Below are positions 3,894 through 7,808 of a DNA stretch of 32,000 nt, piece by piece. Origin of the DNA: an uncultured archaeon (GTDB taxonomy: Archaea; Asgardarchaeota; Thorarchaeia; Thorarchaeales; Thorarchaeaceae). The position numbers were made by a program, and so were the translations under genes. The notes below the pieces were generated by a model. It had not been told where the DNA came from. It worked only from the letters and a program-made list of their open reading frames with translations, and made no database searches. Numbering within the stretch: the stretch's first letter is position 1; every line of letters begins with the position of its first letter. The stretch spans positions 36,939 through 68,938 of the forward strand of contig CAYHAA010000017.1 in the NCBI GenBank assembly GCA_964354495.1, given 5' to 3'.

Positions 3894-5174
3894 TTATAGC
3901 TCGTGAAGCTCAGGTGCCGCAATGAACGTCAGTCCACGTTTCGTCAGCTCCTCAGCTGTTCGATTCAGTGCATGGTGCTTATCCAAGTAGTTCTGCAGAA
4001 GCAGAGGCATGTGCCCCGCTTTGAGGATGTCCTCTTTGGTTCGGAAGTAATCAAGGATATCGCTAGGATGTTCACGTACCGTTTCGTTCTCAATAACGCC
4101 GCCCTCGTGTTTTGCACTGATGTTCTTCACGTGATTTGCCAAATCAAGCAGGTCAGAAAGCCGGTCATACGGCTGCCGAACAATGGACTTGTAGGTTTCC
4201 GTAATGTGATGCTCGATTCGCACCACATCTTCAAAATCGAAGGACTTCCGGATTTGCGCGGCCACCTCTATGGTTTCTTTATTGACACTATTGGAGAGGT
4301 TGAATCCGATGAGAGGGCTTGTCCCATTAGGACGACTGAATAGTTTCGCCGTCATTAGCGTCCATAGACATGCATATGGATTGTCGTTGCCCATGAACAC
4401 AGATATCTTGAACCCCATGTCGATACCGAGCTTATGCATCATGTAGCCGACTAGCACACTCCCGGGGTTGATATTGAGAACCTGTTGGACACCATACTTT
4501 GTATAATAATGCAAGAATTCGTCTGCCCACTTCAAGGGAAACTCATTCGGCATCCCAACGCCGCCGAAATAGCCGGTGATTGTCGCAGGACCGCCCAAAT
4601 GGACATTCACTGGTGCTCCATCTGGACCTGGATAGGTGCCCTTGGTATCAAGCGTTTCAACATATGAAGAACCGAATATCTGCATTGCTGCGGCAAACGC
4701 GATGACGTCATCATCTGCTGATTGTTCTGCCATTCGCCGAACCCTGATGAAGCGACTTGGCATTATCTCATCCTTCTCTATAGCCTGTCTGGTTTCTGTG
4801 ATGAGCCATGGAAAGTACTGGCATGCACTGATTTCAAGTGTAACAGCAAAACTATCATCGAATTTCATGGAGTTTGCCTTGTCGCCGAGCACCCGCCGCC
4901 TATACTCAGGAATTGATATGAACACATGATTGTCACGCTGTTCTTGAAGCCACTGAAGATCTCTGATATACGGAGACTTCTTTGAGTCAAGCATTTTCAG
5001 TAGGTTATCGAGTTTGCGTGCCTCGCGTGCCTTTCTATTGATCTCTTTGACTCCTCCATACTTGTCGATCAAGACAAGAACATCGGTCACAAGTTGATTC
5101 TCATCGCTGAGAAAGAAATCATTGATTTCTCTTAGTTTGTCTTCATCAATCAGCAGTTTCTTTCTATTGGTCAT
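3894..5174 (-). CDS. Hypothetical protein of unknown function (426 aa, enzyme-like)
   Basis: Long ORF with globular alpha/beta composition; I cannot assign a family. Confidence 0.8.
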   Translation of the reverse strand: MTNRKKLLIDEDKLREINDFFLSDENQLVTDVLVLIDKYGGVKEINRKAREARKLDNLLKMLDSKKSPYIRDLQWLQEQRDNHVFISIPEYRRRVLGDKANSMKFDDSFAVTLEISACQYFPWLITETRQAIEKDEIMPSRFIRVRRMAEQSADDDVIAFAAAMQIFGSSYVETLDTKGTYPGPDGAPVNVHLGGPATITGYFGGVGMPNEFPLKWADEFLHYYTKYGVQQVLNINPGSVLVGYMMHKLGIDMGFKISVFMGNDNPYACLWTLMTAKLFSRPNGTSPLIGFNLSNSVNKETIEVAAQIRKSFDFEDVVRIEHHITETYKSIVRQPYDRLSDLLDLANHVKNISAKHEGGVIENETVREHPSDILDYFRTKEDILKAGHMPLLLQNYLDKHHALNRTAEELTKRGLTFIAAPELHEL

Positions 5175-5896: not shown

Positions 5897-6049
5897 CTTC
5901 CATACGCTGGACGTTTCAACGAAACGACAGAAAAGAAACAGCATATAACTCTGAGCCAAGACAAAGAGAAGTATTTTAACAAGAGCTGCGCATAGGAGGG
6001 GATGGGTAGTTGAACAAACTCCCACTTCCTATACGAGAGGTAGGGAAAA

Positions 6050-6430
6050 ATGAGCCAAAAATGGATACAGACTGCTGATTGGAAGACCGAGAAACATATC
6101 CCTGTGATTGAAATAGAGAAGGTCAAAGATGGTCGGGTCAATGTGAAAGTCACCGTTGGAAAGGAGATCCCGCATCCGAATACAACAGCTCATCACATAA
6201 AATGGATTGACTTGTTCTTATGGCCGGACGATGAGAAATTCCCAGTTGAGATAGGTTATGTCAGTTTTGATGCGCACGGAGAATCAGCCAAGGGGGCAGA
6301 TACAAGCTCTGTGTACACAGAGCCATGCGCAGTGTTCACATTCATGACCAAGAAAGCGGGAACTCTGATGGCGACCGCCTACTGCAACATTCATGGGCTT
6401 TGGAAGAGTGAGAAAGAGCTCAAGCTCTAG
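6050..6430 (+). CDS. Superoxide reductase (neelaredoxin / class II SORL)
   Basis: EKHIP, HP-NTTAHHIKWI and YCNIHGLW iron-ligand motifs; no desulforedoxin domain. Confidence 0.93.
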   Translation: MSQKWIQTADWKTEKHIPVIEIEKVKDGRVNVKVTVGKEIPHPNTTAHHIKWIDLFLWPDDEKFPVEIGYVSFDAHGESAKGADTSSVYTEPCAVFTFMTKKAGTLMATAYCNIHGLWKSEKELKL

Positions 6431-6713
6431 TTTCACCAAGTTCAGTGACAGCGGTTGGAGCTTGCTCACAGAATAGAGTGGCAGGCTTCCACTGCTCTGC
6501 TTTTCATCCATACTGGGAGAACCAAATTCAGTTGCCTTCAGAGTCCTCGAAGGCTTCAAATGGGAGAATCATTCCTCACGGGCGTTTCAAGTTCCAAGGA
6601 GCACAATTCCGGAGAGAAGAATCTCCTCCATATCACCATACAGCCCGTCGACAGTGTCTTGAAACTAGTCACATCTTGTGACTTCATCTTGTGTCCCTCA
6701 AGAGTGGCTTCGC

Positions 6714-6721
6714 TATATATA
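6714..6721 (+). promoter_or_regulatory. TATA-box-like element upstream of the micro-peptide pair
   Basis: TATATATA about 30 nt before the ATG at 6751, the spacing expected for a near-leaderless archaeal transcript. Confidence 0.55.
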
Positions 6722-6750
6722 CTCTGTCTGAGCAGTATTTCTCGTGAACT

Positions 6751-6858
6751 ATGATGGCTCTAGCAACTAACAACCGAACGATATCTGCGCTGAAGAACAA
6801 GACCGGTCGAATTCTCTCGACCGAGGCAATCACCTACGCCTACCAGTATAGGAGGTAA
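6751..6858 (+). CDS. Small peptide 1 (35 aa): MMALATNNRTISALKNKTGRILSTEAITYAYQYRR
   Basis: Manual translation; TATA box upstream; paralogous to the next ORF with differences at silent positions. Confidence 0.72.
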   Translation: MMALATNNRTISALKNKTGRILSTEAITYAYQYRR

Positions 6859-6864
6859 AGAATA

Positions 6865-6951
6865 ATGACTCAAGCTAAGAGAACAATCAGGAATTACCAC
6901 GATAAGAGAATCTCCACTGATGCAATCACCTATGCATACATGTACAGGTAG
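6865..6951 (+). CDS. Small peptide 2 (28 aa): MTQAKRTIRNYHDKRISTDAITYAYMYR
   Basis: Manual translation; SD GGAGGT at 6851-6856, 8 nt before the ATG; shares RTI...STxAITYAYxYR with peptide 1. Confidence 0.75.
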   Translation: MTQAKRTIRNYHDKRISTDAITYAYMYR

Positions 6952-6957
6952 ATCACG

Positions 6958-7065
6958 ATGACCCCCGAGAAAATTGTTCTTGAAAATCACTCTAGCTCGC
7001 CCAACGACAATGCCAAGCGTTGTTGCATGACTCCTGAGGAAGTGCTCATGCTCGAAGCAACCTGA
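6958..7065 (+). CDS. Possible third small ORF (35 aa): MTPEKIVLENHSSSPNDNAKRCCMTPEEVLMLEAT
   Basis: Starts 6 nt after the peptide 2 stop and fills the gap to the convergent gene; only a weak SD (AGGT). Confidence 0.25.
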   Translation: MTPEKIVLENHSSSPNDNAKRCCMTPEEVLMLEAT

Positions 7066-7098
7066 GCACTTCATTCTTTGTTTTCCGTACTTCAATCA

Positions 7099-7701
7099 CT
7101 ACATATCTGCCTTCACGATCCAGCTGACAAGCTCAGAATTCAGAGGATTCTCCTTGACGAACTCCTCGCGATAGGTTCCGCTCTTGAAGGCAAGAAGAAC
7201 ATTCTGCATCCCTCCATCGAAACCCACAATTCTCACTGCTCTTGCAAGCGAATTGGATCGGAAGGCAATCACTGTTGCAATCAGAGACACTGCAAAGATT
7301 ACAGTAAAGGTGAATACCCATGGAGAGATAGAAGTCCCTCTTGATATCGAATCGCCCAACAACAACAGACCGAAGAACATGAAAGCCATCGCAAGTCCAT
7401 CTACTATGAGGCACAATGATTTGTAGCGATCTTCCCCCTCGTCGGTGTAGTAATGATCAGCACATACTTGGATAGGCAGAACTCTCAGGTTAGGTTGTGG
7501 AATTCCTTGCTTTCTCCGAACCCGAGGGTCAAAGGAGGGGTCCCATTCACGTCGTAAGTACTGAGGCCTTCCGGATACAATGGTCAGGCGCGATGTTGTT
7601 GTTGCAGGATTTCCGCAGACAGGACATACTCTCGGGAAACGTGCTCTGGAGATGTCTACACGAACAATGGGTTCATCAAGGTAGAACTTCCTCGGGCTCA
7701 T
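7099..7701 (-). CDS. Membrane protein with N-terminal zinc-binding-like motif (CPVC...CADH) and two TM helices
   Basis: CxxC plus distal CxxH, followed by two hydrophobic segments. Confidence 0.8.
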   Translation of the reverse strand: MSPRKFYLDEPIVRVDISRARFPRVCPVCGNPATTTSRLTIVSGRPQYLRREWDPSFDPRVRRKQGIPQPNLRVLPIQVCADHYYTDEGEDRYKSLCLIVDGLAMAFMFFGLLLLGDSISRGTSISPWVFTFTVIFAVSLIATVIAFRSNSLARAVRIVGFDGGMQNVLLAFKSGTYREEFVKENPLNSELVSWIVKADM

Positions 7702-7808
7702 GGCATGTAGACTCCCTCACGGAAGAGGAGAAGAGAAGTGGGATAAAGAGTGTATCGACCTAGGCATTACTGCAGCATTTTTAACTCTCAAGATACGAGC
7801 ATTTCGCC

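Follow-up and report, generated by a model that had tools for sequence, protein, structure and literature searches.

A conserved three-cistron microprotein operon of Thorarchaeaceae carries an operator sequence also found at a bactofilin-domain gene

Here, we report a three-cistron operon (positions 6754-7065, + strand; 34, 28, and 35 codons) encoding two basic paralogous microproteins and an acidic third one, found in a 32,000-nucleotide stretch of DNA (the window) from an uncultured member of the archaeal family Thorarchaeaceae. With its operator and terminator, the self-contained operon occupies 6668-7085 (Table 1), and its own genome has four loci of this kind, itself included. The Thorarchaeota, which are related to the archaeal ancestor of eukaryotes, remain uncultured; almost everything inferred about how their cells work comes from known gene families. 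The microprotein family described here is skipped by standard annotation, yet it is multi-copy in almost every Thorarchaeaceae genome and bears clear marks of purifying selection.

Table 1. Features of the micro-operon, in window positions
Feature	Position	Strand	Description
Operator palindrome GTCACA-tct-TGTGAC	6668..6682	.	Exact form at 4 sites in the 3.3-Mb genome
Third half-site	6685..6697	+	CATCTTGTG again, directly repeating 6672-6680 and leading into TGTGTCCC
BRE-like GTGGCTTCGC, then TATA box TATATATA (6714-6721)	6704..6721	+	Nearly invariant between genera
CGTGAAC, TGTGAA-like element	6743..6749	+	At the inferred transcription start; conserved in all promoters
Cistron 1	6754..6858	+	34-aa basic microprotein (pI 10.5, +5), MAL...STEAITYAYQYRR; additional in-frame ATG at 6751
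SD AGGAGGT for cistron 2	6850..6856	+	Inside cistron 1, made up of its two final Arg codons and the first stop base; ends 8 nt before the cistron 2 ATG
Cistron 2	6865..6951	+	28-aa basic paralogue (pI 10.0, +4), ...ISTDAITYAYMYR
SD-like AGGT for cistron 3	6946..6949	+	8 nt 5' of the cistron 3 ATG
Cistron 3	6958..7065	+	35-aa acidic microprotein (pI 4.7, -3), C-terminal EEVLMLEAT
Terminator	7039..7085	+	10-bp perfect hairpin (7039-7048 / 7063-7072) and U-rich run; -19.7 kcal/mol, z -3.75

A first-pass annotation, made from the window alone, had proposed a two-gene operon of tandem ORFs at 6751-6858 and 6865-6951 (+). Both ORFs and the operon arrangement were confirmed, but the conserved third cistron had been missed and the conserved start of ORF1 differs: the window reads ATG-ATG (6751, 6754) where orthologues read ATT-ATG and their proteins start MAL, so the conserved start is 6754, not 6751. 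The last 13 codons of ORFs 1 and 2 form a 38-nt direct repeat (6815-6852 / 6911-6948; 79% identity) with eight base differences, of which five are synonymous (TCG/TCC, ACC/ACT, TAC/TAT, GCC/GCA, TAT/TAC) and three fall in two changed codons (E/D, Q/M), in agreement with the shared S-T-[ED]-A-I-T-Y-A-Y-x-Y-R tail and silent differences noted at first pass. The last codons of ORF1 do supply the SD sequence for ORF2, as had been proposed, and AGGT/AGGTGA is retained there in orthologues even with the Arg codons altered. The next gene downstream (7099-7701) is convergent.

Cistron 3 lies in the same frame as the TAG stop codon of cistron 2 (6949-6951), and several cistron 2-cistron 3 "fusion proteins" were present in the protein library (P0015, P0022, P0032, P0033, and P0036). 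These were judged to be gene-calling artifacts, since the two that were checked translate only with TAG read as Q. Stop-codon read-through or pyrrolysine insertion was dropped because no PylS scored above the cut-off in the same genome and because in some orthologues cistron 3 is out of frame. An antisense ORF (6760-7095, 111 aa) was rejected as a gene; it was retained in only two of the orthologous loci. An Rfam scan of 6000-7800 gave no match at E values up to 1, and neither Rfam nor tRNA scanning turned up anything in the window or in variant loci. In RNA data, the only clear run with a match gave a single contig over the adjoining superoxide-reductase gene (6095-6397) and none over the operon, an outcome that speaks neither for nor against expression.

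The promoter of the micro-operon is almost invariant, combining GTCACA-N3-TGTGAC with fixed spacing to the TATA box, and is a new finding of this analysis; it is among the most rigidly conserved imaginable. Among the family's first-cistron promoters, 33 of 37 contained the exact palindrome, the palindrome-to-TATA distance was 47 nt in all 34 promoters having a palindrome with at most one mismatch, and the TATA-to-ATG distance was 39 to 40 nt. At the third half-site, TGTG(A/T)CCC was conserved in orthologous and paralogous promoters. The TATA box itself, already recognized upstream of ORF1 at first pass, lies 37 to 40 nt before the two candidate ATGs. Searches of the same genome with 16- to 19-nt BRE-like/TATA patterns (core GTGGCTTCGC plus TATATA) gave matches only at three micro-operons; the fourth locus (C16) has a different palindrome, adjoining its TATA box. 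Archaea have a characteristic distance from TATA box to transcription start, by which the start was placed, and the first ATG would accordingly be preceded by a 5' leader of about 8 to 11 nt with no SD.

Basic members of the family share a conserved MAL start and the tail S-T-x-A-[IL]-T-[YH]-A-Y-x-Y-R(R), conservation lying at MAL and over the C-terminal 13 residues, with a variable middle. The 93 distinct basic members have a median pI of 10.5 and a charge of +5 (C-termini: 46 YRR, 14 FRR, and others such as VVR and YQR); the 20 cistron-3 members have the opposite character (pI 4.7, charge -3) and a conserved tail of their own, [DE]-[DE]-V-L-x-L-E-A-T. The basic peptides of the window are hydrophilic (GRAVY, -0.50 and -1.04), with no hydrophobic stretch. 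AlphaFold2 predicted, at low confidence (mean pLDDT, only 66), one helix (residues 7 to 32) that is surest over the conserved tail, although small and aromatic residues alternate there in a way that would also suit a beta-strand. Complex prediction for cistrons 1, 2, and 3 together scored 0.03, a value that weighs neither for nor against binding. PIP-box, PqqA-type E-x3-Y, and WH2-type LKKT readings were examined by eye and dropped because key positions were variable or misplaced.

The search of Asgard genomes suggested at first pass matched the basic-family profile to 72 of the 76 Thorarchaeaceae genomes (Thorarchaeota MAGs; 15 of 16 genera; 1 to 13 matches each) and to 0 of 224 genomes from 29 other Asgard families. 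A scan of 185,579 species confirmed 16 loci, with Candidatus Thorarchaeota as the title for 15, and an HMM search of 1.84 billion proteins retrieved only small ORFs of 29 to 84 aa besides one spurious repeat protein. The cistron-3 family was found in 60 of 80 Thorarchaeaceae genomes, typically directly 3' of basic cistrons. The microproteins had no Pfam or NCBIfam matches at E values up to 10, none in PADLOC or PHROGs, and no copies on viral contigs; an ESM Atlas look-alike search was uninformative (best score, 0.84), and the family turned up nowhere in word searches of the literature. Copies occupy four distinct conserved syntenic contexts whose neighbors are unrelated between contexts: SOR, ECF-S, GNAT, and transketolase (the window's own); methyltransferase and TrmB; EF1A and a beta-propeller protein; and MFS. 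The family is multi-copy, vertically inherited, and so far restricted to Thorarchaeaceae. Its multi-copy nature, its restriction to one family, and the operator common to a bactofilin gene had escaped the first-pass annotation.

Across seven orthologous operons, the minimum changes numbered 49 and 40 at codon positions 1 and 2 and about twice as many, 88, at position 3; pairwise dN/dS, taken over whole cistrons, ranged from 0.18 to 0.44 in the 21 comparisons. The mid-chain residues N6, R8, and S11 and the N-terminal MAL are conserved through synonymous changes. Frameshifts or stops in homologues would have pointed to non-coding DNA; every listed match was instead an open frame free of internal stops, mostly about 30 to 40 aa long. 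Because such frames are open and conserved in hundreds of copies elsewhere, the reality of the ORFs is far beyond chance. The operon is almost certainly protein coding and conserved, and these results fully support the earlier view of the basic microproteins as a real small-protein family under purifying selection.

The exact palindrome was observed four times in the genome of the window, with about 0.4 expected from base frequencies: at three micro-operons and at a gene for a 413-aa protein with a bactofilin domain (C4:55921-57162; PF04519 Bactofilin, 46 bits; cut-off, 27.9). This gene comes directly after an HTH_45 winged-helix gene (C4:55392-55805), whose candidacy as the operator's regulator is a guess from position only. 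No similarity was found between that gene and a Zn-ribbon/winged-helix gene near the MFS-linked locus. The palindrome was upstream of the bactofilin orthologue in 27 of 30 Thorarchaeaceae loci and was also at the bactofilin gene in three other Asgard families (f12, 4/4 loci; f2, 1/1; f27, 2/2). Five further Thorarchaeaceae genomes contained 26 palindromes (16 at micro-operons, 4 at bactofilin genes, 2 at copies of a membrane-protein gene, and 4 at other sites), and the reversed pattern, used as a control in those five genomes, gave 0 to 2 matches per strand per genome. As the same operator, outside micro-operons, sits mainly at the bactofilin gene, the microproteins would be members of that regulon; going by the shared cis-element only, the micro-operons and the bactofilin gene probably share one. 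Co-regulation by itself shows neither a physical nor a functional link. The bactofilin gene and its operator are also present where the peptides were not found (G151 within Thorarchaeaceae; families f2 and f12), and the peptides are therefore at most optional partners.

What the peptides do was weighed against several known systems. As small paralogues in multiple copies that share a conserved Tyr-rich tail, they recall RiPP precursors, a reading raised at first pass; the tail would then be a core for modification by an enzyme whose gene lies elsewhere in the genome. Prochlorosins are a dispersed RiPP precursor family of this kind, PqqA and MftA are conserved-core precursors, and the microproteins resemble them in their Tyr-containing conserved C-terminal segment; one of the four contexts also has an MFS transporter 3' of the operon on the same strand. 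However, no radical SAM, YcaO, P450, peptidase, or other maturase occurs in any of the four contexts (the GNAT is found only in the window's own, beyond a convergent gene), and no precursor model of Pfam or NCBIfam matched. The supposed core is conserved and the middle variable, the reverse of most multi-copy RiPP families, with no leader/core pattern; the PqqA-like Glu position varies freely (E/D/Q/K/F/Y/H/R), the MAL N-terminus is conserved, and the operon encodes its own acidic partner rather than an enzyme. We regard a RiPP role as very unlikely. Much the same holds for exported bacteriocin-like or signalling peptides. Aureocin A70 (aurABCD) and enterocin L50A/B are leaderless, cationic peptides of about 30 aa from tandem paralogous cistrons with tight translational spacing, all features of the present cistrons (28 to 35 aa), and the MFS transporter in the one context is of the MFS_3 "secretion effector" type. 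The peptides of the window are nevertheless hydrophilic and contain no segment, hydrophobic or amphipathic, of membrane-active type; transporter and immunity genes are missing from three of the four contexts; the operon differs in having an acidic partner cistron; and near-universal, syntenic conservation, here on the chromosome throughout one archaeal family, is unusual for bacteriocins. This reading is similarly improbable. A role as proteasome gate-openers or competitors, through the C-terminal HbYX motif of PAN/Rpt/Cdc48-type activators, is fainter still. Cistron 2 ends M-Y-R, which fits hydrophobic-Tyr-X, as do 12 of the 93 distinct basic members; cistron 1 ends Y-R-R, 81 of 93 have no penultimate Tyr, so that the defining feature is not a family trait, and the microproteins have no attached ATPase or other body.

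Co-translated products of opposite charge, an aromatic tail with Arg, and an autonomous, tightly regulated operon would suit a toxin-antitoxin-like or buffering pair, in which the targets of the basic peptides are nucleic acid or ribosomes (Tyr stacking, Arg contacts), the acidic peptide neutralizes the basic ones, and the bactofilin link is one of regulation only. Against this, the loci are syntenic and vertically inherited in 72 of 76 family genomes, with no patchy or mobile pattern and no viral copies, PADLOC, PHROGs, and Pfam gave no match, and many operons have no cistron 3 (60/80 genomes, compared with 72/76 for the basic family); we consider such a pair unlikely. The conserved ends might instead act as nascent chain or RNA, in regulatory upstream ORFs, arrest peptides, or a non-coding tandem duplication. 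Conservation peaks directly before the stop codons, the final codons also serve as SD sites, and the MFS gene in one context follows on the same strand. Yet in the window the operon ends in a terminator of its own and its neighbor is convergent, and a 5'-leader position holds only in the MFS-linked context; at the C3 locus of the same genome, moreover, the YRR end is kept with non-SD codons and no cistron after it. Together with dN/dS well below 1 over whole cistrons and the synonymous changes that preserve MAL, N6, R8, and S11, this leaves the reading hardly credible.

Our overall reading, to which we assign a probability of roughly 45%, is that of a conserved micro-operon that shares its regulation with a bactofilin module and probably serves it in an accessory role. 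Transcription would proceed from the strong TATA box, starting about 8 to 11 nt 5' of the first ATG, under a dimeric transcription factor that reads GTCACA-N3-TGTGAC and further TGTGA-type half-sites. Cistron 1 would be translated from a nearly leaderless mRNA and cistrons 2 and 3 via the SD sites buried in the preceding cistron, so that the three products would be made together, and the hairpin would terminate the transcript. Since the operator is common to micro-operons and the bactofilin gene, the microproteins may work with the cell-shape machinery, most likely as accessories to the bactofilin module. Docking of the basic peptides, a possible role suggested at first pass, would go through their C-terminal Ala/Tyr/Arg segment, with the acidic peptide as their pairing partner or buffer. 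That microproteins and bactofilin act in the same process is plausible at somewhat less than even odds; direct binding to the bactofilin polymer is doubtful.

The operator gives a first handle on the biology of the microproteins, tying them to a bactofilin-type cytoskeletal gene and a candidate regulator. Should the link prove functional, it would define small factors of a new class, associated with the cytoskeleton, along with a tractable regulon (defined operator, candidate regulator, and synthesizable 28- to 35-aa peptides) testable in vitro without culture; should it be regulatory only, the operator would still be a ready-made marker of a conserved Asgard response. For the bactofilin partner, a comparison is available in the Haloferax volcanii halofilins HalA and HalB, HalA homologues being reported in the Asgard group (PMC11459167). 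The likeness concerns the regulon partner, as an archaeal bactofilin-domain protein, and not the microproteins; a word search of that paper found no small-protein partners or shared operator ("small protein" and "operon," zero occurrences).

A similar circuit with different microproteins was found in another Asgard family (f27), where the same palindrome/TATA promoter type drives tandem pairs of basic microproteins of 28 to 30 aa. These have no detectable homology to those of Thorarchaeaceae (hhalign probability, 0.4%) and, unlike them, no acidic third cistron was seen; one lies within the bactofilin operon, between the promoter and the bactofilin gene. A broader and distinctly speculative proposal, improbable as a whole, would be a dedicated Asgard circuit present in several families, in which a winged-helix regulator reads GTCACA-N3-TGTGAC and co-controls a bactofilin-type (halofilin-like) protein and fast-evolving, lineage-specific tandem basic microproteins that bind the polymer directly and tune its assembly, capping, or bundling, acting on bactofilin filaments as thymosin- or profilin-sized factors act on actin; in Thorarchaeaceae this layer would have expanded, to a maximum of 13 profile matches (cistrons) in a genome, and the acidic partner would have been added. 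The palindrome also precedes the membrane-protein gene in two genomes and is found within genes too. Its N3 spacer is uniform within a genome (G144, 7/7; G180, 4/4; G071, 6/6) and different between genomes.

The window holds a conserved, protein-coding operon of three microproteins. The first-pass annotation had described a pair of paralogous ORFs, a TATA box ahead of the first and an SD site for the second within the end of the first, and all of these lie where it placed them. The C-terminal likeness of the pair covers the last 13 codons, which form a 38-nt direct repeat of 79% identity (5 of 8 differences synonymous). Absent from that annotation were an acidic third cistron, with AGGT 8 nt 5′ of its ATG, and a perfect 10-bp hairpin (−19.7 kcal/mol; z, −3.75), which with the U-rich run behind it closes the operon immediately ahead of a convergent gene. 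An Rfam scan of the operon region gave no match. Because a comparable ORF occurs in only one other orthologous locus, the antisense ORF that spans the entire operon is probably not a gene.

Features and loci in the window, in the source genome (contigs C2 to C17) and in other Asgard genomes (G, genome; L, fetched locus)
Feature	Location	Strand	Remarks
TATA box	6714–6721		TATATATA
Cistron 1 (ORF1)	6751–6858	+	Basic; conserved start at 6754
SD site of cistron 2	6850–6856		AGGAGGT, from final codons of ORF1, 8 nt 5′ of ATG
Cistron 2 (ORF2)	6865–6951	+	Basic
Cistron 3	6958–7065		35 aa, acidic, 6 nt after cistron 2
Hairpin arms	7039–7048/7063–7072
Antisense ORF	6760–7095	−	111 aa; kept in two orthologous loci
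Convergent gene	7099–7701	−	200 aa; N-terminal CPVC-type zinc ribbon, hydrophobic segments, no Pfam match; conserved in nine genomes
426-aa protein	3894–5174	−	Synteny kept in seven genomes; no Pfam match
Variant micro-operon (L061)	C9:about 82000–82353 (− strand)		Basic cistron ends ...AYAFLSSLR
Winged-helix (HTH_45) gene, palindrome promoter and bactofilin-domain gene in direct succession	C4:55392–57162; L060:2393–4163
Different palindrome, methyltransferase/TrmB context	C16:about 45050–45110; L041, L046		GTTTGTG-A-CACAAAC type
~365-aa membrane protein behind palindrome	L113 (G013:C7); L112 (G071:C29)		Two genera
Its source-genome orthologue	C2:116866–117804		No palindrome upstream
Family f27 microproteins	L098:131–223; L101, L120, L127, L134	− (L098)	Genomes G247, G143
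Sole exact palindrome of family f6	L135 (G029:C59:4269–4283)		Between divergent Cdc48-like and ArsR-type winged-helix genes

Seven orthologous copies of the whole unit were aligned. Over the three cistrons together, the minimum number of changes was 49 at first, 40 at second and 88 at third codon positions, and pairwise dN/dS was 0.18 to 0.44 in 21/21 comparisons, so the purifying selection first read from silent differences between the paralogues is borne out across genomes. The conserved start of cistron 1 is the second ATG, since orthologues read ATT-ATG-GCT for the window's ATG-ATG-GCT and family members begin M-A-L. Among cistron-1-type members, M1, A2, T23, A25, A29 and R34 are invariant and L3, N6, R8, S11, S22, Y32 and R33 nearly so.

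The proposal of a real small-protein family also holds, with homologues in open frames in other genomes. In the source assembly (51 contigs, 3.3 Mb), a six-frame motif scan detected this tandem layout on contigs C3 and C16 as well, and an operator search added a fourth locus, on C9. Cistron 1 as query matched 24/24 genomes of the genus searched, always in stop-free frames. A profile of the basic cistrons (A1, 32 members) matched 72/76 genomes and 15/16 genera of the Thorarchaeaceae, with 1 to 13 matches per genome, and 0/224 genomes across 29 other families of the phylum. A pattern scan of 185,579 prokaryotic species (one genome each) confirmed 16 loci, titled Candidatus Thorarchaeota (15) or "uncultured archaeon" (1); viral contigs yielded no match. 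In 1.84 billion proteins, an HMM search returned 36 representatives, all ORFs of 29 to 84 aa save one spurious repeat protein, and the motif is therefore no part of a larger protein family. The family is thus multicopy and, as far as searched, restricted to Thorarchaeaceae.

Micro-operons usually comprise one to three basic cistrons (median, 33 aa; pI 10.5; net charge, +5; 93 distinct members in fetched loci) and then one acidic cistron (pI 4.7; charge, −3; n = 20) with the tail [DE]-[DE]-V-L-x-L-E-A-T. By coordinate comparison, the acidic cistron nearly always lies 100 to 250 nt downstream of the basic ones on the same strand; its family is present in 60/80 Thorarchaeaceae genomes. A second architecture has a basic cistron ending ...AY-x-TVVR, a ~41-aa cistron with S-G-H-R-x-G and further basic cistrons, often with an MFS transporter after them. 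Its source-genome representative is the C9 locus, where a ~42-aa cistron (S-G-H-R-C-G-H) follows the basic one, that strand also carries the transporter farther downstream, and the palindrome/TATA promoter is the same. Four syntenic contexts, each conserved between genomes, account for the loci: that of the window (superoxide reductase, ECF S-component, Zn-ribbon membrane protein, GNAT and transketolase), a methyltransferase with a TrmB regulator, EF1A with a beta-propeller protein, and an MFS_3 transporter with a Zn-ribbon/winged-helix protein close by. With contexts conserved between genomes and different neighbors in each, the family is autonomous, old and inherited vertically. A stretch on the downstream side of the C3 micro-operon, about 450 nt away, resembles the 3′ end of a tRNA (T-arm and acceptor).

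The promoter is rigid. When 37 first cistrons (paralogous loci, six or more genera) are compared, the noncoding DNA between −90 and the ATG hardly varies, whereas sequences farther upstream are unrelated. The promoters share, in this order, a palindrome (TAGTCACA-N3-TGTGAC; exact in 33/37), a further TGTG(A/T)CCC after it, GTGGCTYCGC immediately 5′ of TATATATAC, and GAGCAGTA followed by TTCTTGTGAA about 5 nt 5′ of the ATG. The palindrome starts 47 nt 5′ of the TATA box in 34/34 promoters with at most one palindrome mismatch, and TATA start to ATG measures 40 nt in 30 promoters and 39 nt in 4. Archaeal promoters have a usual TATA-to-start distance, by which the transcript is predicted to begin inside the TGTGAA element, with a leader of about 10 nt that should lack an SD; internal cistrons have SD sites. 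The distinct palindrome of the methyltransferase/TrmB context contains a GTCACA/TGTGAC core and abuts a TTATATG TATA box.

A bactofilin-domain gene shares this operator. Base frequencies predict about 0.4 exact palindromes in the 3.3-Mb source genome, which has four; three belong to the micro-operons on C17 (the window's contig; window at 36939–68938), C3 and C9. The fourth (C4:55832) belongs to a promoter of similar build, in which a TGTGAC half-site is present and the TATA box stands nearer by about one helical turn. The gene behind this promoter encodes 413 aa with a Bactofilin domain (PF04519; E = 5.5e-12; 46 bits; cutoff, 27.9). Directly upstream of that gene is one for a winged-helix protein of 137 aa (HTH_45; 29 bits; cutoff, 25.5), possibly the palindrome-binding regulator and its obvious candidate; the pair appears syntenic, since a conserved gene end, read by eye, stands shortly 5′ of the palindrome in many orthologous loci. 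The bactofilin gene has orthologues in 55/60 family genomes, with the palindrome at 27/30 loci examined. Five further family genomes hold 26 sites (reversed-pattern control, 0 to 2 per strand per genome): 16 at micro-operons, 4 at bactofilin genes, 2 at copies of a ~365-aa multipass membrane protein with an acidic N-terminus, and 4 elsewhere (two intragenic). The N3 spacer is uniform inside a genome (7/7, 4/4 and 6/6) and differs between genomes, as expected from coevolution with a single regulator or from gene conversion.

Bactofilin orthologues range beyond the peptides, to 16/19 genomes of Asgard family f12, 5/5 of f27 and one each in f2, f6 and f25, and the palindrome stands at the bactofilin promoter in 4/4 f12, 1/1 f2 and 2/2 f27 loci; genomes of f15, f5 and f25 have no exact palindrome. 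In f27, promoters of this type also stand ahead of other basic microproteins arranged in tandem pairs (28 to 30 aa; M-x-x-K-K-...-K-Q-V-K-K-E-I-E-Q-...-G-C). No homology between these and the Thorarchaeal family was detectable; one of the ORFs sits between promoter and bactofilin gene, the latter preceded by an SD. In one f12 genome, a 29-aa candidate follows the palindrome and ends ...Y-T-F-A-C-R-R. The putative regulatory circuit is older than the Thorarchaeal microproteins.

The Thorarchaeal family has no curated counterpart: Pfam, NCBIfam, PADLOC and PHROGs had no match for any of the three cistrons, and literature word searches found no account of it. The RiPP-like precursor suggested at first pass was set aside, as none of the four contexts has a linked maturase. 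The M-Y-R end of cistron 2 fits an HbYX peptide; across 93 members, a penultimate Tyr occurs in only 12, the end being YRR in 46 and FRR in 14. Fusion of cistrons 2 and 3 was also considered. In the window, the TAG of cistron 2 shares the reading frame of cistron 3 and stands two codons 5′ of the latter's ATG (6949–6960), and five library proteins resemble such fusions ("fused" products of 69 to 84 aa in public protein sets). Both of the two traced translate only with TAG read as Gln, the TAG is out of frame in other orthologues, and the source genome has no PylS above cutoff. No known kind tested fits, whether RiPP precursor, HbYX peptide, leaderless bacteriocin, toxin-antitoxin, leader peptide or RNA.

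From operator and cistron layout we infer, with fair confidence, that a single factor binding the palindrome, perhaps the neighboring winged-helix protein, would control micro-operons and bactofilin gene in common, and that two basic products and one acidic product would be translated in coupled fashion. In Haloferax, archaeal bactofilins (halofilins) control how cells change shape, and the Asgard group has been noted to have homologues of HalA (PMC11459167). More tentatively, the microproteins might act in a bactofilin (cell-shape or scaffold) module, docking via their conserved tail; because the bactofilin gene and operator also occur without the peptides, the latter would be a lineage-specific accessory layer and no core part. 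AlphaFold2 predicted a single helix (residues 7 to 32; mean pLDDT, 66) with the conserved tail as its better-defined end; this tail combines a Tyr/Arg cluster with an A-x3-A spacing that is invariant. Its residues are also compatible with a beta-strand that has a small face and an aromatic face.
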